A stretch of DNA of 64,000 nucleotides from Escherichia coli (GTDB lineage: Bacteria; Pseudomonadota; Gammaproteobacteria; Enterobacterales; Enterobacteriaceae): NCBI RefSeq assembly GCF_003334305.1, contig NZ_QOWS01000009.1. One strand, written 5' to 3'. Both the position numbers and the translations under genes were made by a program. Each line of letters begins with the position of its first letter. The stretch's first letter is position 1. Under the pieces are notes generated by a model. It saw nothing but the letters and a program-made list of their open reading frames with translations. It was not told where the DNA came from and searched no databases. Below, one piece after another: positions 10,894 through 57,573 of this stretch.

Positions 10894-12084
10894 ATGAGTG
10901 AATTTATTGCCGAAAACCGCGGCGCGGATGCCATCACCCGACCGAACTGGTCAGCCGTTTTCTCGGTGGCGTTTTGTGTCGCCTGTCTGATTATCGTTGA
11001 GTTTTTGCCCGTCAGTTTGTTGACGCCAATGGCCCAGGATTTAGGCATTTCGGAAGGGGTTGCCGGGCAATCGGTGACCGTGACCGCCTTTGTGGCAATG
11101 TTTGCCAGTTTGTTTATTACCCAGACAATTCAGGCCACTGACCGCCGCTACGTTGTTATTTTGTTTGCCGTTTTGCTGACGCTCTCCTGCTTGCTGGTTT
11201 CCTTTGCTAACTCATTCAGTTTGCTTTTAATCGGTCGTGCCTGTCTGGGGCTGGCGCTGGGCGGGTTCTGGGCGATGTCGGCGTCGCTGACCATGCGTCT
11301 GGTACCGCCGCGTACGGTGCCGAAGGCGCTGTCGGTGATCTTCGGCGCGGTTTCTATTGCGCTGGTGATTGCCGCGCCGTTGGGCAGTTTTTTAGGCGAG
11401 CTTATCGGTTGGCGCAATGTCTTTAATGCGGCGGCGGTGATGGGCGTGCTGTGTATTTTCTGGATTATCAAATCATTGCCTTCACTGCCAGGCGAACCCT
11501 CGCATCAGAAACAAAATACTTTCCGCTTATTACAACGTCCGGGTGTGATGGCAGGGATGATCGCCATCTTCATGTCTTTCGCCGGGCAGTTTGCTTTCTT
11601 CACGTATATTCGCCCGGTGTATATGAACCTGGCGGGATTCGGCGTGGATGGCTTAACGCTGGTGCTGTTGAGTTTTGGTATCGCCAGCTTTATTGGTACG
11701 TCGCTTTCGTCGTTCATTCTTAAACGTTCGGTAAAACTGGCCTTAGCAGGCGCGCCGTTAATACTGGCTGTGAGTGCGTTGGTACTGACGTTGTGGGGAA
11801 GCGATAAAATCGTTGCTACCGGCGTGGCGATTATCTGGGGGCTAACTTTTGCATTGGTTCCCGTCGGCTGGTCAACGTGGATCACCCGCTCGCTGGCCGA
11901 TCAGGCAGAAAAAGCCGGGTCTATTCAGGTGGCGGTTATTCAGCTTGCTAATACCTGTGGCGCGGCAATCGGCGGTTATGCGCTGGATAATATTGGTCTG
12001 ACTTCGCCGTTGATGTTGTCCGGCACATTGATGTTGCTGACTGCATTGTTGGTTACTGCAAAGGTGAAAATGAAGAAATCCTGA
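10894..12084 (+). CDS. nepI: Purine ribonucleoside efflux pump NepI (MFS)
   Basis: 396 aa from internal ATG ([20 protein letters not shown]...) of ORF 10729..12084. Confidence 0.9.
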
Positions 12085-12124
12085 TATCAGGTAAAGAAGC
12101 GTTGGTCAGTAGTTGTTGCTGTTC

Positions 12125-12418
12125 TTACATATCCGGGCATTCTACCTTACCCAACGCTTCCCAATAATTGCTCTGATTATTACGTTCCATCGCCACGATG
12201 GCCTCGCGTATATGTTGTTTATTGTTTTCATCTGACAACATTAACTTTTCCCACGCTTCATCTGATAATGACGCCTGTGGCGTGCAAATTTTACGTAAAT
12301 CTTGTAATACCGTGGTTTTCTCTTTTGCGGACTGCAGTGAGCTAAAAGGCGACTCGGCGTATACGATGCCTGGCATAGCGAAAAAAGTGAAAATAAGCAG
12401 TAGTGTCGTTGGTTTCAT
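12125..12418 (-). CDS. yicS: Small periplasmic protein YicS
   Basis: 97 aa with cleavable signal peptide (MKPTTLLLIFTFFAMPGIVYA). Confidence 0.85.
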   Translation of the reverse strand: MKPTTLLLIFTFFAMPGIVYAESPFSSLQSAKEKTTVLQDLRKICTPQASLSDEAWEKLMLSDENNKQHIREAIVAMERNNQSNYWEALGKVECPDM

Positions 12419-12639
12419 GGATTCAACCTTTTACAAATGTGTATCGAATGAAGCATAAGTGTAGTTTGCTTTCATCGCTCTCATCATGCTGTACGAAACG
12501 CGCTTGCGTGGTCAGTAAGAAGTGCCAGACTTTATATTCCACTTTTATTCCTTTTTATTCTTATCGATAGCGTTTCGTTTTTTAAACCGCAGCGACCTTA
12601 CCGCTATAGTCAGGTAATCATTAATAAAAGGATAAAAAA

Positions 12640-13458
12640 ATGAAACTGACAACACATCATCTACGGACAGGGGCCGCATTATTGCTGGCCGGAATTCTGC
12701 TGGCAGGTTGCGACCAGAGTAGCAGCGATGCAAAACACATTAAAGTTGGCGTTATAAATGGCGCAGAACAAGATGTCGCGGAAGTCGCTAAAAAGGTGGC
12801 AAAAGAGAAATATGGCCTCGATGTTGAACTGGTAGGATTTAGCGGTTCGTTGCTACCGAACGATGCGACAAATCATGGCGAACTTGATGCGAATGTCTTC
12901 CAGCATCGACCCTTTCTTGAACAAGATAATCAGGCGCATGGTTATAAACTGGTAGCGGTGGGAAATACGTTTGTCTTCCCTATGGCGGGTTATTCCAAAA
13001 AAATCAAAACCGTGGCGCAAATAAAAGAAGGCGCGACAGTGGCGATCCCCAACGACCCGACCAACCTTGGTCGCGCACTTTTACTGTTGCAAAAAGAGAA
13101 GCTAATTACTCTGAAAGAGGGAAAAGGGTTATTACCTACCGCGCTGGATATAACCGATAATCCTCGTCATTTGCAGATTATGGAACTCGAGGGGGCGCAG
13201 CTTCCGCGCGTACTGGATGATCCCAAAGTTGATGTAGCGATTATCAGCACCACTTACATTCAGCAGACAGGGCTTTCTCCGGTGCACGACAGCGTATTTA
13301 TTGAAGATAAAAATTCGCCGTATGTGAATATTTTGGTGGCACGGGAAGATAATAAGAATGCAGAAAACGTGAAGGAATTTCTGCAATCTTATCAATCATC
13401 CGAAGTCGCTAAAGCGGCAGAAACCATCTTTAACGGTGGCGCGGTGCCTGGCTGGTAA
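12640..13458 (+). CDS. nlpA: Lipoprotein-28 NlpA (methionine-binding lipoprotein family)
   Basis: 272 aa, lipobox LLAGC after signal peptide. Confidence 0.95.
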   Translation: MKLTTHHLRTGAALLLAGILLAGCDQSSSDAKHIKVGVINGAEQDVAEVAKKVAKEKYGLDVELVGFSGSLLPNDATNHGELDANVFQHRPFLEQDNQAHGYKLVAVGNTFVFPMAGYSKKIKTVAQIKEGATVAIPNDPTNLGRALLLLQKEKLITLKEGKGLLPTALDITDNPRHLQIMELEGAQLPRVLDDPKVDVAIISTTYIQQTGLSPVHDSVFIEDKNSPYVNILVAREDNKNAENVKEFLQSYQSSEVAKAAETIFNGGAVPGW

Positions 13459-13461
13459 TTC

Positions 13462-14385
13462 TCACTCATCCCGCGCCGGACGATTTATTTTTCTGGCGCG
13501 GCGACGGGAATCCATTGAAATCAAAATTACCGATGACAGAATCAGCAGCGTTCCCAGCCAGTCCGGTAATGTGAACGTGATCCCCAGCAACAGCAAAGAG
13601 AGTAGCGCGCTACTTAATGGTTCTGCACAGCTCAAAATGCTGGCTTTTGGACCGCCAATTAATTGTGCTCCTTTCAGGTACAGACTAAATGTCAGGGACG
13701 TACCAATGACGATCAAATAAAAAAACGCCAAAATCAAACTGCCGTTAACGACAAAGTTTGTCCCTTGTCTGGCATAAAAAGGCAACAGAATCAGACCGCC
13801 GATCAGCATACTCCAGCCGACGACAGACAACGTGCCATAGCGGGCAATTAGCGTTGAGGGATAGGTGGTATAGAATGCAGCAGCAAATGCCGAGGCAATG
13901 CCCCAGAACAACGCGGCAGGAGAGATCGATAATGACGTCGGATTACCGTGTGTCACCAATAAAAAAGTCCCGACCAGCGATGTCAAAATAGCGCAGAAAA
14001 CCAGAATGCCCGGGCGCGATTTACGCACCAGTGAGAACCAGGCGACGATAATCGTCGGTGAGAGGAATTGCAGCACCGTTGCCGTGGCTGCGTTCGATTT
14101 TTCGATGGTTAGCAAAAAAGTGAGCTGTACAGTTAGCGCGCCAACCACGGAAAAAATCAGCAGGCTAATGGCATCTTTATGATTGTTAATAATAGAAAAG
14201 ATTTTATCGCCATGAACAAATGACAGCGTCAGTAGAATCAAACCGGCGAATATCAAACGCGTCATAGTCAAAAACTGCGACGACATCTGGCTTTGCTCCA
14301 TGATGTATTGCGCGCAGACCCCTGAACTTCCCCACAACACGGCGGCAATCAGAACGTTCAGCATCCCCTTTCTGGTGGAACCCAT
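13462..14385 (-). CDS. yicL: EamA/DMT family transporter YicL
   Basis: 307 aa, 10-TM DMT-type pattern; convergent with nlpA with a 3-nt gap. Confidence 0.9.
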
Positions 14386-14495
14386 TTTTCCCTCTGCATA
14401 CTGTTTTGTCGTTTATGTATGCAGGCATGATAGCAAAAATGGCGAGGATGGCTCTGTTTGCGCCACGCCGATTTTTCTTAGCCCAGACTGGTGAG

Positions 14496-15680
14496 CTAAA
14501 TATCTTTAATAAACAGCAGGCAAATCATCGCAATACCCAACATCCCTATCGCCAGCCAGAACAACGCATGGTAGCTCCAGATTTCAACCATAATTCCGTC
14601 AACAGAGCCGGCGATAATCCAGCCGACGCGTGAAGTATTTGCATATAACGTTGTCGCAGAGCCTATTTTTTCAGGCATCAAGTCCTGAAAATAAAGCATG
14701 CCGATACCACAGAGAATACCAAGGAAGATGGCATTAAGAATTTGCAATTCCAGCTCAACCGCCGGAGTCGTCGCCATGAGTACGCTGGCGTAAAAACACA
14801 TTCCACTCACGATAGCAATGAGCATTAATAGTCGCTTGCCAATATGTTTCATGTAATAGCCTGCGATTAACATCATCGGAATTTCCAGACCGGCAGCGAT
14901 ACCAATCATTTCTCCAGCCAGTTTATCGGTTAGATGCAGTTCATCAATAATAAATAGCGGCATATTTATCATGTAGAGATTATTCGCCGCCCACATCATT
15001 GAACAGACCACAAAAAGTAGCCGCGTATCCCGCTTCCTGTGGGTGGAGGGTAAAATTTCTACGGGTTGGGTAACGACAGGAATATTTCTTTGTATTGATG
15101 GCAAAAACAACCAGACTATCAGTCCGCAAACAACAAATGCGATGGCAGCGGTGAGATACATCACTTTAAAACTAAATCCCATTGCCAGTTCATAAGCGAG
15201 CGGTGGCCCGATAACCCAGGCAAGCGAGATCTGAGCACGTAAAAATGTACTGAACATGACCGTCTCACGGCCTGTTCTGTCGGCGTGTTCACGGGCGAGG
15301 GCGAACATTTGCGGGTTTGCGGTGGAAGCAAAACTACTCAGAAGTACGCCCGTTGAGAGGAGAATGAAGTAGTTGCGATTCCACGCAAAAAGCGTGCAGG
15401 CCAGCACTCCAAATAAGCAACATAGCAGAATCAGTAATTTACGGTCGCCTTGTTTATCGGAGTGCCTTGCCAGAAATTGACTGACCAGAATTCCCATAAT
15501 AGCGCTACCGGTGAAGAAAAAACCTACCATTATAGGACGGGCTTTCAGTTCATCTGCGAGGAATATACTTAGGGTAGGAGTCTGAAGAGCGCCCGCAATA
15601 CCCGTCAGAAAGGCGACAAGTAAAAATGCCGCGGCAGTGAGATCAAGTATTTTTGATGGAGTGGTAGCCGTTTTTTGCAT
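14496..15680 (-). CDS. setC: Sugar efflux transporter SetC (MFS)
   Basis: 394-aa MFS protein; SetA/SetB-like. Confidence 0.88.
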   Translation of the reverse strand: MQKTATTPSKILDLTAAAFLLVAFLTGIAGALQTPTLSIFLADELKARPIMVGFFFTGSAIMGILVSQFLARHSDKQGDRKLLILLCCLFGVLACTLFAWNRNYFILLSTGVLLSSFASTANPQMFALAREHADRTGRETVMFSTFLRAQISLAWVIGPPLAYELAMGFSFKVMYLTAAIAFVVCGLIVWLFLPSIQRNIPVVTQPVEILPSTHRKRDTRLLFVVCSMMWAANNLYMINMPLFIIDELHLTDKLAGEMIGIAAGLEIPMMLIAGYYMKHIGKRLLMLIAIVSGMCFYASVLMATTPAVELELQILNAIFLGILCGIGMLYFQDLMPEKIGSATTLYANTSRVGWIIAGSVDGIMVEIWSYHALFWLAIGMLGIAMICLLFIKDI

Positions 15681-16316
15681 TCTTCTGAATCACCGGGCGA
15701 AAAAATATAACTGAGTTACAAATAAGTACCAGTCGAATGAGTATTGTATTAAGAATTTTTGAGTATCGCTGATACAACCAGAAAGCAATGCTAGCGCAAT
15801 ATTATAGGGCCAGCAATTGAGATTATTAGCAAAAGCATGTTAAGAATTAATTACCGAATTTATATATTAATTATAGTAAGGCAATGAGCTATTTTTGATA
15901 GTAAAAATAAAACAAGTTGATTTGATATATTAAATGAACAAATTAATCTTGATGGCAGTCTGATTATTGGTGAAGTTTATAGTCAGTTTTTTTCGCCAGC
16001 GGTTAAAGAAATAGAATAGTCGTATAAAAAAGGGTGTTCTGGGGCGAGTAAAACAACATCTTCACCTTAATGGCGATACAGTTGGCTGAGAGTCAGCAGG
16101 GGGGCAAATCACCTGCAAATAAACACGGCGCATACTGGCGTGAATATCGCGGATGCGTTCGAGGACAGAAGAACCGACAGGCGGATTCTTCAGCCGCTCA
16201 TCGTCCATCACAAAACCTTAGACCAGGTATTCCTGAAGCCGATTGAATATTGAGCAGTAGAAAATATCTGGATTGACAGTATTACAAGGGGTTGGAGAAC
16301 GTCAGGAGAGGCATTT

Positions 16317-16411
16317 TGGCGGAAGATCACAGGAGTCGAACCTGCCCGGGACCGCTGGCGGCCCCAACTGGATTTGAAGTCCAGCCGCCTCACCGGAGAC
16401 GACGATCTTCC
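16317..16411 (-). tRNA. selC: tRNA-Sec (selenocysteine tRNA, UCA anticodon)
   Basis: Reverse complement reads GGAAGATCGTCGTCTCCGGTGAGGCGGCTGGACTTCAAATCCAGTTGGGGCCGCCAGCGGTCCCGGGCAGGTTCGACTCCTGTGATCTTCCGCCA, a 95-nt match to E. coli selC with encoded CCA. Confidence 0.97.
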
Positions 16412-16703
16412 GCGCCTCGATTGCTACATGGAGGCGGGGCGCATTATAGCTACTTCCTTGAGTTTCTACATCCCCCAGATCAGTTTTTTCCGCCTAATAC
16501 ACGCAGCGTATTATCACGAAAGCATTATAGTTCATATAAAACCCATATTTTACAATGATATATGAGCGGAATTAACGCTACCACGATCACATAAAACAAG
16601 AATCATAAATTAATAACCAGATATCGGAATATTCGCTCTCACAGGGATGGTTTACAAAATGCGTTATCGGTCTCAGCACCCCTATAGCATCAAGGAAAAG
16701 CAG

Positions 16704-18086
16704 ATGAAGAGTGAAGTGTTGTCCGTTAAAGAGAAAATTGGTTATGGCATGGGAGACGCCGCCAGCCACATTATTTTCGATAACGTAATGTTATATATGA
16801 TGTTCTTTTATACCGATATTTTTGGCATTCCTGCCGGTTTTGTCGGAACCATGTTTTTGGTCGCTCGTGCACTGGATGCGATTTCCGATCCTTGCATGGG
16901 GTTGTTGGCCGATCGAACGCGCTCTCGCTGGGGTAAATTTCGTCCGTGGGTACTGTTTGGCGCACTGCCATTCGGGATCGTCTGTGTACTGGCCTATAGC
17001 ACGCCAGATCTCAGTATGAACGGCAAAATGATCTATGCAGCAATTACTTACACCCTACTTACCTTACTTTATACCGTCGTCAATATCCCTTACTGCGCAT
17101 TGGGTGGTGTAATCACCAATGACCCGACTCAGCGTATCTCGCTGCAATCCTGGCGTTTTGTGCTGGCGACCGCGGGAGGCATGCTTTCTACTGTTCTGAT
17201 GATGCCACTGGTTAATTTAATTGGCGGTGATAATAAACCACTCGGTTTCCAGGGCGGTATCGCGGTCCTTTCCGTGGTGGCATTCATGATGCTGGCATTT
17301 TGTTTCTTCACCACTAAAGAACGCGTTGAAGCACCACCTACAACAACGTCTATGCGGGAAGATTTACGTGATATCTGGCAAAACGACCAGTGGCGGATTG
17401 TCGGTTTACTAACCATTTTCAATATCCTGGCGGTGTGCGTACGCGGTGGGGCGATGATGTATTACGTCACATGGATTTTGGGCACGCCGGAAGTGTTTGT
17501 CGCTTTTCTCACCACTTATTGCGTGGGTAACCTGATTGGTTCCGCACTGGCAAAACCTCTGACCGACTGGAAATGTAAAGTCACTATCTTCTGGTGGACG
17601 AACGCCCTGCTGGCAGTGATTAGCCTCGCGATGTTCTTTGTTCCCATGCAGGCCAGCATCACTATGTTTGTCTTCATCTTCGTGATTGGTGTGTTGCATC
17701 AACTGGTGACACCTATCCAGTGGGTAATGATGTCCGATACCGTCGACTACGGCGAGTGGTGCAATGGTAAACGCCTGACCGGGATCAGTTTTGCTGGCAC
17801 GCTGTTTGTGCTCAAACTGGGGTTGGCCTTCGGCGGCGCTCTTATCGGCTGGATGCTGGCTTATGGCGGATATGATGCGGCAGAAAAAGCGCAGAACAGC
17901 GCCACGATTAGCATCATTATTGCGCTATTCACGATTGTTCCGGCGATCTGTTATTTGCTGAGCGCGATTATCGCTAAACGCTACTACTCACTCACGACGC
18001 ACAATCTGAAAACCGTTATGGAACAGCTGGCTCAGGGTAAACGCCGTTGCCAGCAACAATTCACCTCTCAAGAAGTGCAGAACTAA
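16704..18086 (+). CDS. yicJ: GPH-family glycoside/pentoside:cation symporter YicJ
   Basis: 460 aa from internal ATG (MKSEVLSVKEKIGYGMGDAASH...) of ORF 16647..18086. Confidence 0.9.
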   Translation: MKSEVLSVKEKIGYGMGDAASHIIFDNVMLYMMFFYTDIFGIPAGFVGTMFLVARALDAISDPCMGLLADRTRSRWGKFRPWVLFGALPFGIVCVLAYSTPDLSMNGKMIYAAITYTLLTLLYTVVNIPYCALGGVITNDPTQRISLQSWRFVLATAGGMLSTVLMMPLVNLIGGDNKPLGFQGGIAVLSVVAFMMLAFCFFTTKERVEAPPTTTSMREDLRDIWQNDQWRIVGLLTIFNILAVCVRGGAMMYYVTWILGTPEVFVAFLTTYCVGNLIGSALAKPLTDWKCKVTIFWWTNALLAVISLAMFFVPMQASITMFVFIFVIGVLHQLVTPIQWVMMSDTVDYGEWCNGKRLTGISFAGTLFVLKLGLAFGGALIGWMLAYGGYDAAEKAQNSATISIIIALFTIVPAICYLLSAIIAKRYYSLTTHNLKTVMEQLAQGKRRCQQQFTSQEVQN

Positions 18087-25175: not shown

Positions 25176-26042
25176 ATGAAAAAGCGTCGGAAGGAACCGG
25201 AAACGCTACGTGAACACTGTCGCCATATTTTTGGTGATGAGCCGCCAGTGCTCTGTGTATGGGAAACGGAATTTGATTACGCAGATGCCGAACTCAAGGC
25301 GCTGGCGGCTAAAGAGTGGCAGCAGATCAGCGTATGGGATTTGAGTGCTTACTATGTACTCAATCTCGTTTATAACGAACCGATGCAAATAGATTTGTTT
25401 CGCTATCTGTTTCCGCTCTGCCTGGCGCAATGGCATGAAACCGTTTTAGCTGGCGGTTATGGTGATCACTTCGAAGAATCCTTAATGAAGGCATTGTGTC
25501 GGCCCTATCTCTGGCAGGAGATGATGAATGCTTCCCAACGCCAGCAGGTACGGCAATTTTTACTGGACACCGCGTTGCAGCGTATGGATAACGAGCGTGG
25601 TTTCAATAACGTTCTTTGCTGGCTGGCGGTGTTCAATACTCTGGGTGGGGCCGCGCCGTTAATTCGTTCTCTCTGGTCGCGCTGGTGGGCGCTGGATACG
25701 CCAGGAAAAGCGGTGTGTGCTATTCAGTATGCCGCGCATCTAATTTATCCCATAGAAGCCAATCCGTTATGGTCGCAAGAATGGATAGGCTGGGGGCATC
25801 CATTAGGCCATAAAGATGGCTGGTCCTCTGATAATCGCGCTTTTCTTCGCCAAATGTTAACACCTGAAATGATTGTGGCTGGCGTACAGGCAGCGGCTGA
25901 AATTCTGCGTGGTGAACCGGAAGGCGCAATGGCGGCGCGAATTGCACAGGATGCGTATGAGGCAATGGATATCCTCACTATCCAGATTGAAGATTTACTG
26001 CGTGACTTGTCTTGTGATGAGTCTGGTCATGCGTTGGAGTAA
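25176..26042 (+). CDS. Uncharacterised Trp-rich cytoplasmic protein (hypothetical)
   Basis: 288-aa ORF with ATG 3 nt after gltS stop; no TM helix or signal peptide; 13 Trp; host-like codon usage; 3' end overlaps recG 3' end by 16 nt; no recognisable family. Confidence 0.6.
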   Translation: MKKRRKEPETLREHCRHIFGDEPPVLCVWETEFDYADAELKALAAKEWQQISVWDLSAYYVLNLVYNEPMQIDLFRYLFPLCLAQWHETVLAGGYGDHFEESLMKALCRPYLWQEMMNASQRQQVRQFLLDTALQRMDNERGFNNVLCWLAVFNTLGGAAPLIRSLWSRWWALDTPGKAVCAIQYAAHLIYPIEANPLWSQEWIGWGHPLGHKDGWSSDNRAFLRQMLTPEMIVAGVQAAAEILRGEPEGAMAARIAQDAYEAMDILTIQIEDLLRDLSCDESGHALE

Positions 26043-34735: not shown

Positions 34736-35560
34736 CTATTTCTTCTCTGTAATTTTTACACTGTTTTCCAACTGCTTGATGCTGACCTGCGGGGTCGGCA
34801 ACTCCTCAGGCATGGTTCCGCCAAGTTCCTGAATGGTTTGCCTCACCTTGCTACCCACGTCAAAGTGTGTGGTATTAGCTTGCTGTTTTGAATTCACGCC
34901 ATCCCGCTTGAGTTTTTCTTCTGTTTGGGTAGCTCGAAAGAGATTAGCCGCCAGTTCTGTTGAACCCATATGATCCAGGATCTTCTGACTCTTTTTCAGC
35001 CCCTTCAGTTGGTGGATGGCTTTCTGATCTAATCCACCATACAGCCCCTGGTAACCATGATTCTGAAATATGGCGAAATCAGTAGCTGTCGCTACCCCAG
35101 CTTGCTGTGCTGCCTCAACCAATTGTTTGTTATGTTCTTTCAACTCATTTCTCAGAAACAGACGCTTTTCGTCTTCACGAAGTTGCTTAAATGCTTCATC
35201 GTCAGCAAGCTCCTGCCGTCGGGTCTGGATAGCAAAATAAGTCTGCCCTGCCGCAATGACCGGTTTCGCAGGGTCGCCGTTTTGTACTACCAGGTAACAG
35301 GCATAGCGGGAGAGATGAACATCTTCAAGTTCTCGTTGAGCCCCTGAACCTAATACAACCATTTTGGTGGTTTCAACGAAATGGTCAGATGCAGCTTGAT
35401 TGCTGGCTTCGCACGCTTGAGTCGCGCGGGCCAGTACCTTTTGAAAATTGCGCCAGTCCCGATAATCCAGTAACGGTGCCAATTCTCTAGCTGACCAAAA
35501 TTCTTGCCCTTCAGTGCCATAATGCCGTATTTCTTCAAAAGGTTGATGATGTTCGTTCAT
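34736..35560 (-). CDS. dinD: DNA damage-inducible protein DinD
   Basis: 274 aa from internal ATG (MNEHHQPFEEIRHYGTEGQEF...) of ORF 34736..35572; LexA box upstream. Confidence 0.9.
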   Translation of the reverse strand: MNEHHQPFEEIRHYGTEGQEFWSARELAPLLDYRDWRNFQKVLARATQACEASNQAASDHFVETTKMVVLGSGAQRELEDVHLSRYACYLVVQNGDPAKPVIAAGQTYFAIQTRRQELADDEAFKQLREDEKRLFLRNELKEHNKQLVEAAQQAGVATATDFAIFQNHGYQGLYGGLDQKAIHQLKGLKKSQKILDHMGSTELAANLFRATQTEEKLKRDGVNSKQQANTTHFDVGSKVRQTIQELGGTMPEELPTPQVSIKQLENSVKITEKK

Positions 35561-35605
35561 TGCCCACTCCATGTGATATCGATTGCAAAGAAAGTAAATC
35601 TGTAA

Positions 35606-35621
35606 CTGTATTTATATACAG
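35606..35621. promoter_or_regulatory. LexA (SOS) box in the dinD promoter
   Basis: CTGTATTTATATACAG matches the CTGT-N8-ACAG consensus, about 45 bp upstream of the dinD start. Confidence 0.75.
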
Positions 35622-35710
35622 TTGTGAGTATCTCACGTTCTCAGTGTGCTGGGCAAAAAAACATCGCAAAATCTGGAGCAGGCACGCAAAACAGAATTGA
35701 AGTTGCGGGG

Positions 35711-35746
35711 AAGAAAAATGCCGCTCTGTTTGAGTGGGCGGCATTT
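35711..35746 (-). terminator. Rho-independent terminator downstream of yicC
   Basis: On the minus strand, AAATGCCGCC..GCGGCATTT hairpin followed by a T-rich run. Confidence 0.5.
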
Positions 35747-35780
35747 GTGAAGGCTGAAAAGTAAGAATTAGTGTTACGAG

Positions 35781-36644
35781 TTACTCAATATTCTGAATCT
35801 GCTCGCGCATCTGCTCAATCAACACTTTCAGCTCGATGGCGGAGTTTGTCACTTCGGCATTGATAGATTTCGACGCAAGAGTGTTCGACTCGCGGTTGAA
35901 TTCCTGCATCATAAAGTCCAGACGACGACCAACGGCTTCTTTTTTCTTCAGAATGTTGTAGGTCTCTTTGACATGCGCTTCCAGGCGGTCCAGTTCTTCG
36001 GCAACGTCAATTCGTTGTGCCAGCAGAACCAGCTCCTGCTCCAGACGGTTGTTTTCCAACTGAACCTGAGCATCTTCCAGCTTCGCGACCAGACGCTCAC
36101 GCTGCCATTGCAGGATTTCCGGCATATGGGCGCGGACTTTGACCACTTCGGCGGTGACGCCTTCCAGACGCTGCTCGATCAATGCTTTCAGCGCCTGACC
36201 TTCGGTTTCGCGCGCGACGATAAAGTCGTCCAGCGTACCATCCAACGCCGCGAGAATTTCAGCGGCAATCGCGTCGAGATCCTGCTCCTGGGCTGCCATC
36301 ACGCCCGGCCAGCGTAGAATATCAACCGGGTTGATTTCCCCTTCGTCACTCTGCATTTTTACCCAGTTCGCGGCAGTTACCAGCTGTTTAGCCAGTTTTT
36401 CATTGAGGATCAGCTCACCTTGTGCGCTAACATCTGGCTCATAGCGCAGGGTACATTCCACTTTACCGCGCGTCAGGCGAGAACGAATACGCTCGCGAAC
36501 GACAGGTTCAAGGCTACGGAACTGCTCCGGCAGACGAAAGTAAGTTTCCAGATAACGCTGGTTTACCGAGCGCATTTCCCAGGTTGCGCTCCCCCATTCA
36601 CCCTTGATTTCACGCCGGGCGTAGGCGGTCATACTGCGGATCAT
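35781..36644 (-). CDS. yicC: YicC-family protein (stress-induced, RNase-associated)
   Basis: 287 aa, MIRSMTAYARREIKGEWGSATWEMRSVNQRYLETYFRLPEQ... Confidence 0.93.
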   Translation of the reverse strand: MIRSMTAYARREIKGEWGSATWEMRSVNQRYLETYFRLPEQFRSLEPVVRERIRSRLTRGKVECTLRYEPDVSAQGELILNEKLAKQLVTAANWVKMQSDEGEINPVDILRWPGVMAAQEQDLDAIAAEILAALDGTLDDFIVARETEGQALKALIEQRLEGVTAEVVKVRAHMPEILQWQRERLVAKLEDAQVQLENNRLEQELVLLAQRIDVAEELDRLEAHVKETYNILKKKEAVGRRLDFMMQEFNRESNTLASKSINAEVTNSAIELKVLIEQMREQIQNIE

Positions 36645-36770
36645 AGACGTTCCTGTTTATAAAAGGAGAGGTGGAAGGATTATAGCCATCGATGCCTTGT
36701 CAGGATAGGAATAACCGCCGGAAGTCCGTATAATGCGCAGCCACATTTGTTTCAAGCCGGAGATTTCAAT

Positions 36771-37487
36771 ATGCGTCCAGCAGGCCGTAGCAATAATCAG
36801 GTGCGTCCCGTTACCCTGACTCGTAACTATACAAAACATGCAGAAGGCTCGGTGCTGGTCGAATTTGGCGATACCAAAGTGTTGTGTACCGCCTCTATTG
36901 AAGAAGGCGTGCCGCGCTTCCTGAAAGGTCAGGGCCAGGGCTGGATCACCGCAGAGTACGGTATGCTGCCGCGTTCTACCCACACCCGTAACGCTCGTGA
37001 AGCGGCGAAAGGTAAGCAGGGTGGACGCACAATGGAAATCCAGCGTCTGATCGCCCGTGCTCTTCGCGCGGCAGTAGATTTGAAAGCGCTGGGTGAGTTC
37101 ACCATTACGCTGGACTGCGACGTGCTTCAGGCTGATGGTGGCACTCGTACCGCGTCGATTACGGGTGCCTGCGTGGCGCTGGCAGATGCGCTACAGAAGC
37201 TGGTGGAAAACGGCAAGCTGAAAACCAACCCGATGAAAGGGATGGTAGCCGCAGTTTCTGTCGGAATTGTGAACGGCGAAGCGGTTTGCGATCTGGAATA
37301 CGTTGAAGACTCTGCCGCAGAGACCGACATGAACGTAGTGATGACCGAAGACGGGCGCATCATTGAAGTGCAGGGGACGGCAGAAGGCGAACCGTTCACC
37401 CACGAAGAATTACTCACCTTGTTGGCTCTGGCCCGAGGGGGAATCGAATCCATTGTAGCGACGCAGAAGGCGGCGCTGGCAAACTGA
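36771..37487 (+). CDS. rph: Ribonuclease PH, apparently intact full length
   Basis: 238 aa from ATG preceded by GGAG ([26 protein letters not shown]...); runs without frameshift to the stop just before the pyrE attenuator. Confidence 0.95.
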
Positions 37488-37492
37488 TTTTT

Positions 37493-37520
37493 AAGGCGAC
37501 TGATGAGTCGCCTTTTTTTT
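37493..37520 (+). promoter_or_regulatory. pyrE attenuator (intrinsic terminator hairpin plus U-tract)
   Basis: AAGGCGAC-tgatga-GTCGCCTT followed by T8, 6 nt after rph stop and 33 nt before pyrE ATG. Confidence 0.8.
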
Positions 37521-37552
37521 GTCTGTAGAAAAGTAAGATGAGGAGCGAAGGC

Positions 37553-38194
37553 ATGAAACCATATCAGCGCCAGTTTATTGAATTTGCGCTTGGCAAGCAG
37601 GTGTTAAAGTTTGGCGAGTTTACGTTGAAGTCCGGGCGCAAAAGCCCCTATTTCTTCAACGCCGGGCTGTTTAATACCGGGCGCGATCTGGCACTGTTAG
37701 GCCGTTTTTACGCTGAAGCGTTGGTGGATTCCGGCCTTGAGTTCGATCTGCTGTTTGGCCCTGCTTACAAAGGGATCCCGATTGCCACCACTACCGCCGT
37801 GGCGCTGGCGGAGCATCATGACCTTGACCTGCCGTACTGCTTTAACCGCAAAGAGGCAAAAGACCACGGTGAAGGCGGCAATCTGGTTGGTAGCGCGTTA
37901 CAAGGACGCGTAATGCTGGTAGATGATGTGATCACCGCCGGAACGGCGATTCGCGAATCGATGGAGATTATTCAGGCTAATGGCGCGACGCTTGCTGGCG
38001 TGTTGATTTCGCTCGATCGTCAGGAACGGGGGCGCAGCGAGATTTCGGCGATTCAGGAAGTTGAGCGTGATTACAACTGCAAAGTGATCTCTATCATCAC
38101 CCTGAAAGACCTGATTGCTTACCTGGAAGAGAAGCCGGAAATGGCGGAACATCTGGCGGCGGTTAAGGCCTATCGCGAAGAGTTTGGCGTTTAA
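37553..38194 (+). CDS. pyrE: Orotate phosphoribosyltransferase
   Basis: 213 aa from internal ATG ([23 protein letters not shown]...) of ORF 37538..38194; PRPP motif [13 protein letters not shown]. Confidence 0.97.
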
Positions 38195-38201
38195 AGAAAC
38201 T

Positions 38202-38225
38202 CGCCGGATGAAAAGTCATCCGGCG
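38202..38225. terminator. Bidirectional hairpin between convergent pyrE and slmA
   Basis: CGCCGGATGA-aaag-TCATCCGGCG perfect palindrome. Confidence 0.6.
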
Positions 38226-38230
38226 TCATA

Positions 38231-38827
38231 TTACTGCAACTGCGCGGCAATTAGCGGCCAGCGGGCGTCAAAATCATCCGTCGGGCGGTATTTAAATTCG
38301 CTGCGGACAAAACGTGACAGCATACCTTCACAGAAGGCCAGGATCTGGCTTGCCAGCAGGGTTTCATCGGTGGTGTAACCTTCACCCTCACGCATTCTCT
38401 TTTCACGCAATACCTGGCGCAGCTGCGCTTCAATACGCTCGAACAGCTGGTTGATGCGCCCTTGCAGGCGATCCTGTTCAAACATTAGCGCATGACCAGT
38501 GAGGATGCGGGTCAGGCCAGGATTACGCTCACCAAAACCGAGAAGCAGCAACACAATCAGACGCAGGCGCGCTGTGGTGTCTTTCTCATCTTTCAGAATC
38601 AGGTTGATGCGAGTAATCAGGCTATCTTCGATAAACTCAATCAGGCTATCGAACATGCGGGTCTTACTGGGGAAGTGGCGATACAGTGCCGCTTCGGAAA
38701 CGCCGACAGAGGCGGCCAGTTTTGCCGTCGTGATACGTTGGCTTCCATCGCTGGATTCCAGCATCAGCGCCAGAGACTGAAGTATTTCCTCGCGACGGTT
38801 CCTTTTCGCAGTTTGTTTTTCTGCCAT
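38231..38827 (-). CDS. slmA: Nucleoid occlusion factor SlmA (TetR family)
   Basis: 198 aa from internal ATG ([24 protein letters not shown]...) of ORF 38231..38869. Confidence 0.93.
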
Positions 38828-38933
38828 GTTACAAAATACCCCTGAAAATAAGCACTTGCCAGGCGGCACCCACGCTATGACCGCAAACGAAATGTTTGCG
38901 GCTATGTTATGACGTTATTCGGATGCGTATGTG

Positions 38934-39392
38934 TTACTGACGACCAGAGTGACCAAAGCCGCCTTCACCGCGGTCGGTGGCGTCGAAATCTTCCACCAGA
39001 TTAAATTCAGCCTGTACTACCGGAACAAAAATCATCTGGGCGATGCGTTCGCCAGGTTGAATGGTGAAGCTGTCCTGACCACGGTTCCACACGGAAATCA
39101 TCAACTGGCCCTGATAGTCAGAATCGATCAATCCTACCAGGTTACCAAGCACGATACCGTGCTTATGTCCCAATCCGGAGCGCGGCAGCATCATTGCCGC
39201 CAGTGAAGGATCGGCAATATGAATCGCCAGCCCGGTCGGAACCAGCGTAGTGTCACCCGGAGCCAGTTCTACGGCGTCGTCGAGACAGGCACGCAGGTCA
39301 AGTCCGGCAGAGCCAGAGGTGGCATAAGTCGGGAGCGGAAATTCCTTCCCAACGCGCGGGTCCAGAATCTTAACGTCGATTTTTTTCATCAT
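38934..39392 (-). CDS. dut: dUTP diphosphatase
   Basis: 152-aa ORF ([21 protein letters not shown]...); true start may be the second ATG at 39389. Confidence 0.95.
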
Positions 39393-40590
39393 AACGGGTC
39401 ACGATCTCGTCGAGTAATAATTGGCCAAGGAGCTCTTTGCGCTCAAGCGGTAAGACTTTATCTCCGTCCTGCCAGAAAAGGTGTAATGCGTTGTTGTCGC
39501 TGTTAAATCCTTGAGTTGGCTGGGAAACATCGTTCGCGCAGATCAGATCAAGGTTTTTACGGATACGTTTTTGCCGGGCGTATTCTTCCACATTATTTGT
39601 TTCGGCGGCAAATCCAACGACGTAGGGTCGATGGTCTTTTAGTGCGGCAACGCCTGCGACGATATCGGGGTTTTTAACCATTTTTATTGTTAATTCATCA
39701 CCCTGCGTGGCCTGCTTTTTGATTTTCTCTGGGGCCACGGTAGCTGCGCGATAATCCGCCACGGCGGCGCAGCCGATAAAAATATTTTGCTGCTGTACAG
39801 AAGCATTCACGGCGGCTTCCATTTCCAGCGCGGTCATCACATCAACACGTTTAACAAACGGTGGCGTCGGTAGTGAAACCGGACCTGATACCAGCGTGAC
39901 GTTCGCGCCACGACGGGCAGCGGCGGCGGCGATAGCAAAACCCATCTTGCCGGAGCTGTGATTAGAGATATAACGCACGGGATCGAGCGGTTCACGCGTC
40001 GGGCCGGCGGTAATCATAATGTTCAGATGTTTCAGGTCGTTGACGGGCGAAAAATGCGCTACCGCCATATCCACAATGGTTAACGGATCGAGCATTCGCC
40101 CAGGACCGATATCACCACAAGCCTGACTGCCACTGTCTGGCCCCCAGATGAGCAAACCACGGGAAGCAAGCACCTCTAAATTATGCTGCGTGGCAGCGGC
40201 ACGGTACATCTGCTGGTTCATGGCGGGGAGCACGGCTACAGGCGCAGGTGTAGCCAGACAAATCGTCGATACCAGGTCATTCGCCATTCCGGCAGCAACA
40301 CGGGCAATCAAATCTGCCGTGGCAGGGGCGAGAATCACTAAATCAGCCCATTTACCCAGCTCAATATGGCCCATAGCGGCTTCGGCTGCCGGGTTCAGCA
40401 GACTGTCGGAAACGGGATAACCAGAAACCGCCTGCAAGCTAAGTGGGGTGATAAAGGCTTTTGCCGCTTCGGTCATGGCTACGCGGACGTCGGCCCCGCG
40501 ATCGCGCAAACGACGCACCAGTTCAGGGGTTTTATAGGCAGCAATACCGCCGCTAACGCCGAGAACGATTTTTTTACCGGCCAGGCTCAT
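39370..40590 (-). CDS. coaBC: Bifunctional phosphopantothenoylcysteine decarboxylase/synthetase
   Basis: 406 aa from internal ATG ([24 protein letters not shown]...) of ORF 39370..40662; 3' end overlaps dut start by 23 nt. Confidence 0.95.
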
Positions 40591-40755
40591 GATGATTTTT
40601 CCTGTTGGGTGACACCAGAAGTTGGCGATTTTATCACAATACTTTTGTTGTCGTGCCTTCACCTGAGAATCACTTTGCGAGGCGCTTTCCAGGATTGAAA
40701 ACTGGCCGTCGATTTAACGGAACGGCTATGACAGGATGCGAGCACCACAAAGGAG

Positions 40756-41430
40756 GTGAAGGTGAAAAACAATTCACAGCTGATGATGCCGCGCGAAAAA
40801 ATGCTGAAGTTTGGTATTAGCGCCTTAACGGATGTCGAGCTGCTGGCGCTATTTCTGCGTACCGGAACGCGCGGTAAAGATGTATTAACCCTGGCAAAAG
40901 AGATGCTGGAGAATTTCGGCTCTCTTTATGGCTTGTTAACCTCTGAATATGAACAATTTAGTGGCGTTCATGGAATTGGCGTGGCGAAATTTGCCCAGTT
41001 AAAGGGGATTGCTGAACTGGCGCGGCGTTACTACAACGTGCGGATGCGTGAAGAAAGCCCTTTACTCAGCCCGGAGATGACGAGGGAATTTTTACAAAGC
41101 CAGCTCACGGGTGAGGAGCGGGAGATCTTTATGGTGATCTTTCTCGACTCCCAACACCGGGTTATAACGCATAGCCGTCTTTTTTCCGGCACGCTAAACC
41201 ATGTTGAAGTCCATCCTCGGGAAATTATCCGCGAAGCGATAAAAATAAACGCCTCGGCGCTGATCCTTGCACATAATCACCCTTCGGGTTGTGCTGAACC
41301 CAGTAAAGCGGATAAACTCATTACTGAACGGATAATAAAGAGTTGTCAGTTCATGGATTTACGCGTGCTCGACCATATCGTGATTGGGCGTGGAGAGTAT
41401 GTTTCTTTTGCCGAACGCGGCTGGATTTAA
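40756..41430 (+). CDS. yicR: RadC-like JAB-domain protein (UPF0758) YicR
   Basis: 224-aa ORF; JAMM motif HNHPSG; start codon uncertain (GTG at 40756 or 40762, or ATG at 40783). Confidence 0.88.
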
Positions 41431-41625
41431 CCCGCTATGCGCGATCCTTCGGGATCTTTGTCTGTTCGGGACTTGAGCACATCGCTGAGTCAGCGTATAC
41501 TACGCCACCTTTGAGAATCTCGGGTTTGGCATTTGGGCCTGGCAATCGAGAGTTCACATAGAACTGCGATGACCGGGCTGTAAAGCCTGACGAGGCGCCA
41601 ATACCCCATACGAAGCTCGAGCTAA

Positions 41626-41883
<258 letters not shown>

Positions 41884-41900
41884 GTACTTAGAGGAAATAA

Positions 41901-42071
<171 letters not shown>

Positions 42072-42088
42072 TTCTCGCTTTGATGTAA

Positions 42089-42120
42089 CAAAAAACCTCG
42101 CTCCGGCGGGGTTTTTTGTT
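42089..42120 (+). terminator. Rho-independent terminator of rpmBG
   Basis: AAAAAACCTCGC-tccg-GCGGGGTTTTTT hairpin with U-tract. Confidence 0.7.
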
Positions 42121-42168
42121 ATCTGCTTGCCCCCATATTGACTGCATCTGTTCATTCCTGGAGATGCT

Positions 42169-42978
42169 ATGCCTGAATTACCCGAAGTTGAAACCAGCCG
42201 CCGCGGCATAGAACCGCATCTCGTTGGTGCAACCATTCTTCATGCAGTGGTGCGCAACGGACGCTTGCGCTGGCCGGTTTCAGAAGAGATCTACCGTTTA
42301 AGCGACCAACCAGTGCTTAGCGTGCAGCGGCGGGCTAAATATTTGCTGCTGGAGCTGCCTGAGGGCTGGATTATCATTCATTTGGGGATGTCTGGCAGCC
42401 TGCGCATCCTTCCAGAAGAACTTCCCCCTGAAAAGCATGACCATGTGGATTTGGTGATGAGCAACGGTAAAGTGCTGCGCTACACCGATCCGCGCCGCTT
42501 TGGTGCCTGGCTGTGGACCAAAGAGCTGGAAGGGCATAATGTGCTGGCCCATCTTGGACCGGAGCCGCTCAGCGACGATTTCAATGGTGAGTATCTGCAT
42601 CAGAAGTGCGCGAAGAAAAAAACGGCGATTAAACCGTGGCTGATGGATAACAAGCTGGTGGTAGGGGTAGGGAATATCTATGCCAGCGAATCACTGTTTG
42701 CGGCGGGGATCCATCCGGATCGGCTGGCGTCATCACTGTCGCTGGCAGAGTGTGAATTGTTAGCTCGGGTGATTAAAGCGGTGTTGCTGCGTTCGATTGA
42801 GCAGGGCGGTACAACGCTGAAAGATTTTCTGCAAAGTGATGGTAAACCGGGCTATTTCGCACAGGAATTGCAGGTTTACGGGCGAAAAGGCGAGCCGTGT
42901 CGGGTGTGCGGTACGCCGATTGTGGCGACTAAACATGCGCAGCGGGCAACGTTTTATTGTCGGCAGTGCCAGAAGTAA
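42169..42978 (+). CDS. mutM: Formamidopyrimidine-DNA glycosylase
   Basis: 269 aa, N-terminal PELPEVE and C-terminal zinc finger CxxC..CxxC. Confidence 0.97.
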
Positions 42979-42987
42979 TTCATGCGC

Positions 42988-43009
42988 GCCGGATGGCATA
43001 CCATCCGGC
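42988..43009. terminator. Bidirectional hairpin between convergent mutM and coaD
   Basis: GCCGGATGG-cata-CCATCCGGC perfect palindrome. Confidence 0.6.
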
Positions 43010-43016
43010 ATAAACG

Positions 43017-44781
<1,765 letters not shown>

Positions 44782-45094
44782 AGTAAATAGCTGACTTATG
44801 GATGTGCTGGGGATTCTATGTATTTAGCTGTGGCTTTACCATTACTTTTCCCGTTTTTGACTTAAATAGCAATTTACCCGCCAATTCTTGCTGAACATCT
44901 ATACTTTTTTTGTATTTTTATGCGATTCATTGATTTCTGCTGTACGTGCAGGAAGGAATCGCAGAGCAACAGTGAAAGAATATGGTTGCTAATGATTTTA
45001 TTTGATTGATTTCTTTATTGAAAATCAACAATGTGCTTAAAAATCATTCGGGTCGGATTGCCGCGAAAGAAGTGATACACTAGCGCGTCAATAT

Positions 45095-45144
45095 CAGTGC
45101 GGTATCAGTATTCAGGTAGCTGTTGAGCCTGGGGCGGTAGCGTG
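45095..45144 (+). promoter_or_regulatory. JUMPStart-like element containing the ops site (GGCGGTAGCGTG) in the waaQ leader
   Basis: TCAGGTAGCTGTTGAGCCTGGGGCGGTAGCGTG with ops at 45133..45144, about 50 nt upstream of the waaQ start. Confidence 0.75.
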
Positions 45145-45193
45145 CTTTTTCTGCTTCACCTTAATCGGATAATCTCAACAAAAAGAGTTACTT

Positions 45194-46252
45194 GTGGATA
45201 AGCCATTTCGAAGAATTTTGCTCATTAAGATGCGTTTTCATGGGGATATGTTATTAACTACTCCCGTCATTAGTTCGCTGAAAAAAAATTACCCTGACGC
45301 AAAAATCGATGTGCTGCTTTATCAGGACACCATCCCGATCCTGTCTGAAAATCCAGAGATTAACGCGCTCTACGGCATAAAAAATAAAAAAGCAAAAGCC
45401 TCAGAAAAAATTGCCAACTTTTTTCATCTCATCAAGGTATTACGTGCCAATAAGTATGACCTTATCGTCAATCTTACCGATCAATGGATGGTTGCTATAC
45501 TGGTTCGCTTATTAAATGCCCGTGTGAAAATTTCCCAGGATTATCATCATCGGCAGTCTGCTTTTTGGCGTAAAAGTTTCACCCATTTGGTGCCGTTGCA
45601 GGGTGGAAATGTGGTGGAAAGTAACTTATCCGTGCTGACACCATTGGGACTTGATTCGTTGGTGAAGCAGACAACCATGAGTTACCCGCCTGCAAGCTGG
45701 AAACGTATGCGTCGCGAACTTGATCACGCTGGTGTTGGACAAAATTATGTGGTTATCCAACCTACGGCGCGGCAAATCTTCAAATGCTGGGACAACGCCA
45801 AGTTTTCCGCTGTGATTGATGCCTTACATGCTCGTGGTTATGAAGTCGTTCTGACGTCCGGCCCAGATAAAGACGATCTGGCCTGCGTCAATGAAATTGC
45901 GCAGGGATGCCAGACGCCACCAGTAACGGCGCTGGCTGGAAAGGTGACCTTCCCGGAACTTGGTGCGTTAATCGATCATGCGCAGCTGTTTATTGGCGTT
46001 GATTCCGCACCGGCGCATATTGCCGCTGCAGTTAATACGCCGCTGATATCGCTGTTTGGTGCGACAGACCATATTTTCTGGCGTCCCTGGTCAAATAACA
46101 TGATTCAATTCTGGGCGGGAGATTACCGGGAAATGCCAACGCGCGATCAGCGTGACCGAAATGAGATGTATCTTTCGGTTATTCCGGCGGCAGATGTCAT
46201 TGCTGCTGTCGATAAATTACTGCCCTCCTCCACGACAGGTACGTCGTTATGA
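45194..46252 (+). CDS. waaQ: LPS heptosyltransferase III WaaQ
   Basis: 352 aa from GTG; GT9; conserved N-terminal RRILLIKMRFHGD requires a start upstream of the first ATG. Confidence 0.88.
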   Translation: MDKPFRRILLIKMRFHGDMLLTTPVISSLKKNYPDAKIDVLLYQDTIPILSENPEINALYGIKNKKAKASEKIANFFHLIKVLRANKYDLIVNLTDQWMVAILVRLLNARVKISQDYHHRQSAFWRKSFTHLVPLQGGNVVESNLSVLTPLGLDSLVKQTTMSYPPASWKRMRRELDHAGVGQNYVVIQPTARQIFKCWDNAKFSAVIDALHARGYEVVLTSGPDKDDLACVNEIAQGCQTPPVTALAGKVTFPELGALIDHAQLFIGVDSAPAHIAAAVNTPLISLFGATDHIFWRPWSNNMIQFWAGDYREMPTRDQRDRNEMYLSVIPAADVIAAVDKLLPSSTTGTSL

Positions 46253-47373
46253 TCGTTGCTTTTTGTTTATATAAATATTTTCCCTTTGGCGGTTTGCAGC
46301 GTGATTTTATGCGTATTGCTCAGACAGTCGCCGCCCGAGGTCATCATGTTCGGGTTTATACCCAGTCGTGGGAAGGCGAATGCCCTGATGTATTTGAACT
46401 GATCAAAGTGCCGGTTAAATCGCATACCAATCACGGGCGCAATGCGGAGTATTTTGCCTGGGTGCAAAAACATTTACGCGAACATCCCGTCGATAAAGTC
46501 GTTGGATTCAACAAAATGCCGGGGCTGGACGTTTATTATGCCGCTGATGTTTGTTATGCCGAGAAAGTAGCGCAGGAAAAAGGCTTTTTCTATCGCCTGA
46601 CGTCACGTTATCGCCATTATGCCGCCTTTGAGCGGGCAACCTTCGAACAGGGCAAGCCGACACAGCTGCTGATGCTGACAGATAAGCAAATCGCCGATTT
46701 CCAGAAACATTATCAGACTGAAGCGGAGCGTTTTCATATTCTGCCACCGGGGATTTATCCTGATCGTAAATATAGCCAGCAGCCAGCCAATAGCCGTGAA
46801 ATCTTCCGTAAGAAGAATGGAATAACCGAACAACAATATTTATTGTTGCAGGTCGGTTCAGACTTCACGCGTAAAGGTGTCGATCGTTCCATTGAAGCAC
46901 TTGCTTCGTTACCGGATTCGCTGCGCCACAACACATTGCTATATGTTGTTGGGCAGGATAAACCGCGAAAATTTGAGGCGCTGGCAGAAAAACGCGGTGT
47001 GCGCAGTAATGTTCACTTTTTCTCGGGGCGCAATGATGTCTCGGAATTAATGGCGGCGGCGGATTTATTACTGCATCCTGCCTACCAGGAAGCGGCGGGA
47101 ATTGTGCTGCTGGAAGCGATTACTGCAGGATTACCGGTACTAACAACTGCCGTTTGTGGCTATGCGCATTATATTGTCGACGCTAATTGCGGCGAGGCTA
47201 TTGCTGAGCCATTCCGCCAGGAAACATTGAATGAGATTTTACGCAAAGCGTTAACGCAATCTTCATTGCGCCAGGCCTGGGCGGAAAATGCGCGACATTA
47301 TGCTGATACACAAGATTTATACAGTCTGCCAGAGAAAGCGGCGGATATCATAACGGGTGGTCTGGATGGTTGA
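46249..47373 (+). CDS. waaG: LPS glucosyltransferase I WaaG (GT4)
   Basis: 374 aa; start overlaps waaQ stop by 4 nt. Confidence 0.95.
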
Positions 47374-48163
47374 ACTTAAAGAGCCGTTTGCCACGTTATG
47401 GCGCGGCAAAGATCCTTTTGAGGAAGTTAAAACCTTGCAGGGTGAGGTATTTCGTGAACTGGAAACTCGCCGTACTCTGCGCTTTGAAATGGCGGGCAAA
47501 AGCTATTTTCTCAAATGGCATCGCGGCACGACCCTGAAAGAGATAATCAAAAATTTACTCTCATTGCGGATGCCAGTATTAGGCGCTGACCGCGAATGGA
47601 ATGCGATTCATCGACTGCGGGATGTCGGCGTTGATACTATGTATGGGGTGGTATTTGGCGAAAAAGGCATGAATCCGCTGACCAGAACTTCATTTATTAT
47701 TACCGAAGATCTGACACCAACCATAAGTCTGGAAGATTACTGTGCTGACTGGGCGACTACCCCTCCAGATGTTCGCGTAAAGCGTATGCTTATTAAGCGT
47801 GTCGCGACGATGGTGCGCGATATGCATGCTGCGGGCATTAACCACCGTGACTGTTATATCTGTCATTTCCTGCTGCACTTGCCTTTTTCCGGTAAGGAAG
47901 AGGAGTTAAAAATTTCGGTAATTGACCTGCACCGGGCGCAGCTTCGCACGCGCGTTCCACGTCGTTGGCGGGATAAAGATCTTATTGGGCTTTATTTTTC
48001 TTCGATGAATATCGGCCTGACTCAGCGGGATATCTGGCGGTTTATGAAAGTGTATTTTGCCGCCCCGCTTAAAGACATTCTCAAGCAGGAACAAGGACTG
48101 CTGTCGCAAGCAGAAGCAAAAGCCACAAAAATCAGGGAAAGAACGATTCGAAAATCGTTGTAA
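47366..48163 (+). CDS. waaP: LPS core heptose I kinase WaaP
   Basis: 265 aa from ATG overlapping waaG 3' end by 8 nt ([21 protein letters not shown]...). Confidence 0.93.
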
Positions 48164-48178
48164 TTTCCGGAGAGAAAT

Positions 48179-49195: not shown

Positions 49196-49211
49196 AATTG
49201 AGAAAAGTTAA

Positions 49212-50207: not shown

Positions 50208-50216
50208 ATTACTCTT

Positions 50217-50909: not shown

Positions 50910-50934
50910 ACCACACAGTCAAAACGGAACCAAC

Positions 50935-51960: not shown

Positions 51961-52044
51961 TAATAAAAATCATGGATGTCTGAGTTACAATAATAATTAA
52001 GGATGAGTACTATCATATTTTATTAGTTCAGGCAAGAGAACACG

Positions 52045-53028: not shown

Positions 53029-53073
53029 ATCTTGCATTAAATAACCCATCCTCGTAGCATAGGTTGAAACTAT

Positions 53074-54327: not shown

Positions 54328-54341
54328 TGAATATGTGAAAT

Positions 54342-54370
54342 AAAATCAGCAAGGAAGCTGATTTTATTTC
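54342..54370. terminator. Bidirectional hairpin between convergent waaL and waaC
   Basis: AAAATCAGC-aaggaa-GCTGATTTT followed by a T-rich run. Confidence 0.6.
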
Positions 54371-54396
54371 AAAATTATCTATTAAAGAGTTGTAAT

Positions 54397-57360: not shown

Positions 57361-57573
57361 AACTGTAACCTTCGAATTATGGAGTCAGAGACAATCTCAG
57401 ACACGAATACTTCTATCATATCACTACACGGCGTTGGCTTCAGCCATTCGCCAAAAGTGAGATTGATGGACGTTATTTATCCTGAATTTTGCAGAAGTGT
57501 TAACGCGTCATCTCGTCGCGACCTATAAGTTTGGGTAATATGTGCTGGAATTTGCCCTGTCTGGAGAATCGCA

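Follow-up and report, generated by a model that had tools for sequence, protein, structure and literature searches.

An unoccupied K-12-type selC site in Escherichia coli with a rhuM-family relic in its spacer

We observed that the selC locus of this E. coli strain has the layout of the K-12 reference, and we consider it very probable that it is an unoccupied selC attachment site (attB) whose 636-bp spacer towards setC was put together by earlier events. All positions refer to the window, the whole 64,000-nucleotide stretch of DNA that was analysed (Table 1). The tRNA gene is intact, the yicT-setC-yicL flank is contiguous, and neither a direct repeat of the selC end nor an integrase was found. 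Among the properties by which tRNA-linked islands and their remnants are recognized, flanking tRNA-derived direct repeats and an integrase or other mobility gene are absent from the window. Strain-variable, compositionally atypical DNA beside the tRNA gene is present, in a stretch that is swapped in other strains and species (14415-16301).

Table 1. Features of the yicL-selC interval, in window coordinates.
Feature	Position	Strand	Basis
Strain-variable cassette of setC, AT-rich DNA, rhuM relic and leader, bounded by the conserved yicL and the selC trailer	14415-16301		Homology breakpoints
setC, sugar efflux transporter paralogue, 394 aa	14496-15680	minus	NCBIfam TIGR00899
AT-rich segment upstream of setC	15681-16076		31.8% GC; 15694-16024 corresponds to K-12 promoter island 3834632_331
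rhuM-family internal fragment (K-12 pseudogene yicT, b4653)	16077-16238	minus	tblastn, nucleotide alignment, PF13310, PGAP and K-12 annotation
Escherichia-conserved leader	16239-16301	minus	Alignment with species loci L041, L018 and L034
selC trailer, 15 bp, AAATGCCTCTCCTGA on the selC strand	16302-16316	minus	Conserved across many Enterobacterales genera
attB core, the 3'-terminal 24 nt of selC	16317-16340	minus	Single-copy here; junctions in island-bearing E. coli and published repeats
selC, tRNA-Sec gene (anticodon UCA), intact	16317-16411	minus	ARAGORN, Rfam RF01852, K-12 comparison

The selC gene and its attachment site

ARAGORN reports a single tRNA in the window, a tRNA-Sec with anticodon TCA, which reaches 83.8 bits with the Rfam tRNA-Sec model, whose gathering score is 47. 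The two programs agree, and with 0 differences from K-12 selC the gene is intact on the minus strand, as the first-pass annotation had stated. When compared to K-12 MG1655, window positions 12000-18000 are 99.68% identical with 0 gaps, and selC plus the spacer contains 1 mismatch in 731 bp, at 15830. The spacer (15681-16316) equals that of MG1655 in length, so the annotated extent of about 636 bp was correct, and the alignment to the K-12 setC-selC interval that had been proposed as a check is free of gaps. MG1655 shares the gene order selC-yicT-setC (b3658, b4653, b3659), with no indels and with yicT at the equivalent position.

We assign the attB core to the 3'-terminal 24 nt of selC because islands, on integrating, duplicate this segment as a direct repeat; selC repeats of 24 bp (PMC6174562) and 21 bp (PMC7058095) have been described as flanking islands. 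In occupied E. coli genomes an integrase adjoins selC, and the far end of the element consists of a selC 3'-end repeat followed by the same spacer. At this far junction the query is covered only up to window position 16340 or 16337, in agreement with the published 24-bp and 21-bp repeats. The same attachment site is used by LEE, PAI-I of strain 536, SHI-2, the selC-A island of EAEC 042 and P4-like satellites. Elements integrated at selC place an integrase and a 21-24 nt repeat before the yicT-setC flank, whereas both are absent from this window.

No second copy of the 24-nt selC 3' end was detected in the 64-kb window with up to 3 mismatches allowed. Looser scans of the window with a 16-mer, a 24-mer, the trailer and the junction 24-mer returned nothing meaningful, only one 3-mismatch match to the 16-mer, 17 kb off, and a repeat search over 14400-16700 found short AT-rich chance repeats and nothing else. 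Two integrases, one from the P4-like satellite at selC in S1-ESP-02-A and one from the O157:H7 selC element, were used as tblastn queries and gave 0 matches in the spacer and 0 in the whole 64-kb window. tRNA-Sec was the sole hit of an Rfam scan of 15300-16800 at E values up to 1, and the spacer matched no small RNA or riboswitch. Since neither integrase nor repeat is present, the site is unoccupied, and the earlier claims that selC carries no integrase, no duplicate of its 3' end and no island are all borne out. With the tRNA gene and the recombination core both intact and single-copy, we infer that elements which target selC, among them LEE, PAI-I, SHI-2 and P4-like satellites, could still insert here by means of their tyrosine integrases.

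This layout is the commonest state of the locus in E. coli. Among 5426 complete E. coli genomes, 2490 (46%) have a K-12-type contiguous selC junction, counted as coverage of at least 80% of window positions 16150-16480. Coverage of at least 80% of 15600-16450 was found in 3604 genomes, the contiguous ones included, and about 1100 of these 3604 possess the yicT-setC flank with inserted DNA between it and selC. In 844 of the 5426 genomes (16%) an intact rhuM cassette is found at this position, on the same strand, and the remaining genomes, for example O157:H7, match selC and its 15-bp trailer and nothing more. The absence of a LEE-type or other element at selC is useful in pathotyping and unremarkable in itself, 46% of complete E. 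coli genomes being alike.

Composition of the spacer and the rhuM relic

The spacer is uneven in composition. Its setC-proximal part (15681-16076) has 31.8% GC, followed by 52.5% at 16077-16238 and 41% at 16239-16316, compared with 50.1% for the whole window. The first-pass annotation had described the spacer as AT-rich, non-coding DNA that presumably forms the setC promoter region. AT-richness applies to the setC-proximal segment and not to 16077-16238, and the description as non-coding overlooked a gene fragment at the latter position. The accompanying statement that the spacer has no ORF of 60 aa or more is correct for ORFs lying entirely within it, the largest of which measure 58 and 49 aa. 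A GTG-started ORF of 61 aa (16208-16393, minus) does exceed this limit; it shares the strand of selC, overlaps the 3' portion of that gene and is almost certainly spurious.

The fragment is 162 bp long and aligns by tblastn to residues ~121-185 of the intact 345-aa RhuM protein of E. coli DS566-2 (63% identity, E 2e-20). One stop codon and two deletions, all in frame, disrupt it, and the N- and C-terminal parts are absent, leaving about 54 codons and no complete ORF. Its translation matches Pfam PF13310 (Virulence_RhuM) with an E value of 4e-10 over model positions 52-98 of 252. Judged by its sequence, the relic is a pseudogene. These results agree with independent annotations: K-12 lists the pseudogene yicT here, and in matching E. 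coli genomes PGAP annotates the spacer with 'rhuM: RhuM family protein', a partial gene that lacks both ends and is interrupted by a stop. At the nucleotide level the relic is 75% identical overall, gaps counted, to the intact rhuM genes of DS566-2 and E. albertii, and a 75-bp core is 95-96% identical to both. The leader in front of these two intact genes differs from that of the window. In the window, leader and relic are fused at about 16238/16239, a junction that joins codon ~120 and has GCTT on both sides.

The yicT pseudogene was already annotated, and nothing here is new in kind; a search for 'yicT' found no relevant paper in the collection searched. In Salmonella, rhuM sits in the variable part of SPI-3, and Blanc-Potard and colleagues are said to have described it in 1999 as part of this island at selC. 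The relic belongs to the same family (PF13310) and is likewise found 3' of selC, a likeness at the family level. In contrast to SPI-3, the window has no other SPI-3 genes, and the relic is short and carries a stop codon. A selC repeat or an integrase fragment in the spacer had been named beforehand as the sign of a decayed or excised element. Neither was seen, but a decayed gene of a selC-adjacent family is present and, since this family lies beside selC in many genomes, it also points to an older element that decayed here.

On the other side of the relic, the setC ORF scores 643 bits against NCBIfam TIGR00899 (curated cut-off 522), has 46.1% GC and is annotated as setC in matching genomes. 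By coordinates (the spacer is 3834340-3834975 in K-12 U00096.2), the K-12 'promoter island' 3834632_331 at selC/setC falls within the AT-rich segment. This island, one of those listed by the Ozoline group, is AT-rich and lies upstream of setC, and the window's membership in this class is by sequence identity. In K-12 this island is bound by H-NS in all ChIP studies considered and is linked to a gene predicted to be foreign (PMC3661553), presumably setC. Genomic SELEX with K-12 DNA found in vitro peaks of the RpoS and RpoH holoenzymes at 3834856 and 3834954 (PMC5493296), which map to about window positions 15800 and 15702. A sigma-70 consensus scan of the spacer gave no site on the setC strand; its one promoter-like site lies on the opposite strand and, like the one weak terminator-like site (16076-16062) from a scan for intrinsic terminators, does not exceed shuffle expectation. 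By analogy with K-12, the setC promoter or promoters probably lie within 15681-16076, and this segment is probably coated by H-NS and largely silenced, as the binding data concern the near-identical K-12 sequence. The reading of the spacer as the setC promoter region is therefore supported for the AT-rich half, with its promoter island and RNA polymerase peaks, and does not extend to the selC-proximal part with the rhuM fragment.

rhuM and other genes beside selC in other genomes

The 15-bp trailer marks a boundary beyond which strains and species diverge. Homology to the loci of many species stops at +15 after selC, and the breakpoint 16301/16302 is common to the O157:H7-type matches and to the intact-rhuM strain DS566-2. 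In many of these loci the trailer is followed by a common CTGAACTCTCCCGAAGTCA-type motif, possibly a conserved arm belonging to elements that target selC or to the rhuM leader. Relative to DS566-2, homology of the cassette breaks at 14414/14415 and 16301/16302, and relative to Escherichia sp. E1V33 at 14450 and 16260.

DS566-2 (NZ_CP092532.1, locus L002) encodes its intact 345-aa RhuM at L002 5397-6434 (PF13310, E 6e-118). The gene, which has the orientation of selC and begins 52 bp away from it, takes the place of setC and the spacer together with a gene for a 165-aa hypothetical protein (L002 4330-4827). The rhuM segment of ~1.2 kb is flanked by the selC 3' end plus trailer and by a degenerate copy of it, CGACTCCTGTGAT----CGCCAAAATGCCTCT (L002 5258-5285 and 6472-6510; 13 + 15 nt with a 4-nt gap), so that from its sequence it looks like a one-gene, integrase-free islet. 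DS566-2 RhuM also matches the PADLOC candidate phage-defence family PDC-S05 (E 3e-173). NCBIfam holds no RhuM model, and the adjacent 165-aa ORF had no PADLOC or NCBIfam family.

We also surveyed one genome per species with the 3' half of selC as query, which yielded 90 loci, many of them with a short downstream stretch. In 12 of the 90, a rhuM gene in the orientation of selC follows it immediately downstream, in full-length, frameshifted or fragmentary form. These loci include E. albertii, Morganella, Hafnia, Erwinia and Pantoea, and further Citrobacter koseri, another Citrobacter, Franconibacter and Kosakonia. In Morganella morganii, a 25-nt repeat composed of the last 5 nt of selC and 20 nt of trailer recurs 3.5 kb downstream of selC, with rhuM inside. 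This was the only species locus in which a repeat was detected downstream of rhuM, other repeats lying in loci devoid of rhuM and many flanks being short. SetC was matched in 0 of the 90 loci, many of which have only a short downstream stretch. Since rhuM is a candidate defence gene, its recurrent pairing with selC may interest research on defence-gene hotspots.

The leader of the window is conserved within Escherichia. E. whittamii, Escherichia sp. E1V33 and a divergent 'E. coli' species representative share the first 58-82 bp of the window after selC (16236-16316). In E. whittamii (L041) and E1V33 (L034) the leader runs on to a rhuM ATG and ~14 codons, followed by unrelated DNA; the ATG + MSDKRLTQSPTGEF at about +122 matches the RhuM N-terminus MSDKDLTQPPAGEF. 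In E1V33 the rhuM stub is followed by a fliB-like gene (flagellin lysine-N-methylase; L034 3200-4414) and then yicL, and setC is absent. The slot between selC and yicL in E. whittamii likewise holds a rhuM N-terminal stub and a fliB-like gene instead of setC. A cassette of the E1V33 type was found in 1 of the 5426 'E. coli' genomes, and a K-12-type leader in front of a longer or full-length rhuM was sought among the E. coli genomes and found in none. As the leader is shared with loci that carry rhuM stubs, these alignments suggest that the leader of the window once preceded rhuM and that lineages truncated the gene differently, the stubs of E. whittamii and E1V33 being, by this comparison, an independent truncation of the same rhuM gene. 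The setC slot thus holds other genes elsewhere, the gene for the 165-aa hypothetical protein in DS566-2 and fliB in E1V33.

Proposed history of the site and observations elsewhere in the window

The rhuM relic, and the rhuM genes and leader beside selC in other genomes, together indicate that the 'empty' site is the stump of an older rhuM module linked to selC. We propose, with middling confidence, that rhuM is an old resident on the 3' side of selC that was truncated independently in different lineages, and that the slot was refilled by single-gene cassettes (setC, the gene for the 165-aa protein, or fliB). About equally well founded, in our judgement, is the part of this proposal by which K-12-type E. 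coli kept an internal fragment of rhuM and E. whittamii and the cryptic clades an N-terminal stub. In the ancestor, selC would have been followed by the leader and a complete rhuM gene. One deletion would have cut away the last part of the leader together with rhuM codons 1-119; a second event would have taken rhuM from codon ~186 onward, so that what was left of the gene came to adjoin the AT-rich DNA before setC. This DNA (~400 bp) may have come with setC or evolved in front of it, setC itself being a later replacement cassette. The order of events and the ancestral rhuM are what we infer from a few outgroup loci, some of them short-flanked. If the proposal is true, selC is a hotspot for the turnover of small integrase-free cassettes as well as for large integrase-borne islands. 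An old selC-linked rhuM, with independent truncations and alternative cassettes, would be a modest extension of the known picture.

Alternatively, rhuM could be the last cargo gene of an integrase-borne island whose integrase and distal repeat were later deleted. We regard this account as plausible but rather doubtful. Consistent with it, the intact rhuM of DS566-2 lies between the 3' end of selC and a degenerate repeat ~1.2 kb away, and the M. morganii repeat encloses rhuM in a similar manner. Salmonella rhuM, as noted above, lies within a selC island. The match of RhuM to PDC-S05 assigns it to a kind of gene typical of mobile islands, and RhuM-family genes are enriched beside restriction-modification and BREX loci (PMC9881135). 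However, no trace of a repeat or an integrase is left in the window, the leader before the relic is kept in several Escherichia species, as expected of resident DNA, and most rhuM-bearing species loci lack a detectable repeat, though their flanks are short. Whether rhuM was island cargo or an old resident, the window holds a decayed remnant and not virgin DNA.

It is very improbable that the site is pristine, with a native non-coding spacer that serves only as the setC promoter and never held foreign DNA. The missing integrase, direct repeat and long ORF would fit such a site, as would the binding of RNA polymerase upstream of setC in K-12 (PMC5493296) and a layout that is the commonest state in E. 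coli (2490/5426). These points are outweighed by the rhuM-family fragment, which is recognized by both tblastn and Pfam (E 2e-20 and 4e-10), by the step in composition from 52.5% to 31.8% GC, and by the replacement of setC and the spacer by other genes elsewhere, with breakpoints 15 bp from selC. Least credible of all is that LEE, PAI-I or another large island was recently present, for although its precise integrase-mediated excision would restore a K-12-like attB without a trace and so fits every observation, nothing speaks positively for it, and vertical inheritance is simpler given the one-base difference from K-12 and a state found in 46% of E. coli.

The K-12 'empty' selC flank, which is in wide use as the baseline of island-screening PCRs and comparisons, thus contains decayed and probably acquired DNA, namely the yicT/rhuM relic and the AT-rich stretch before setC. 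For this reason, breakpoints 15 bp from the tRNA gene, or similarity to rhuM, should not be read as signs of a new island.

Elsewhere in the window, the strain differs from K-12 in a non-K-12 waa core and in an additional ORF between gltS and recG. This ORF (25176-26042, plus) encodes a hypothetical protein of 288 aa, is absent from K-12 and occurs in 1911 of the 5426 E. coli genomes. The LPS core (waa) region at 48059-54470 comprises ~6.4 kb that has no megablast match to K-12, where the region measures 8.4 kb, and the LPS core type of the strain is probably non-K-12. The adjoining stretch 35528-48059 is 92.9% identical to K-12, compared with 98-99% elsewhere. Finally, ~1.28 kb of K-12 that includes htrL (3792656-3793938) corresponds to only ~61 bp here (57409-57469), and htrL appears to be absent or replaced in the strain.
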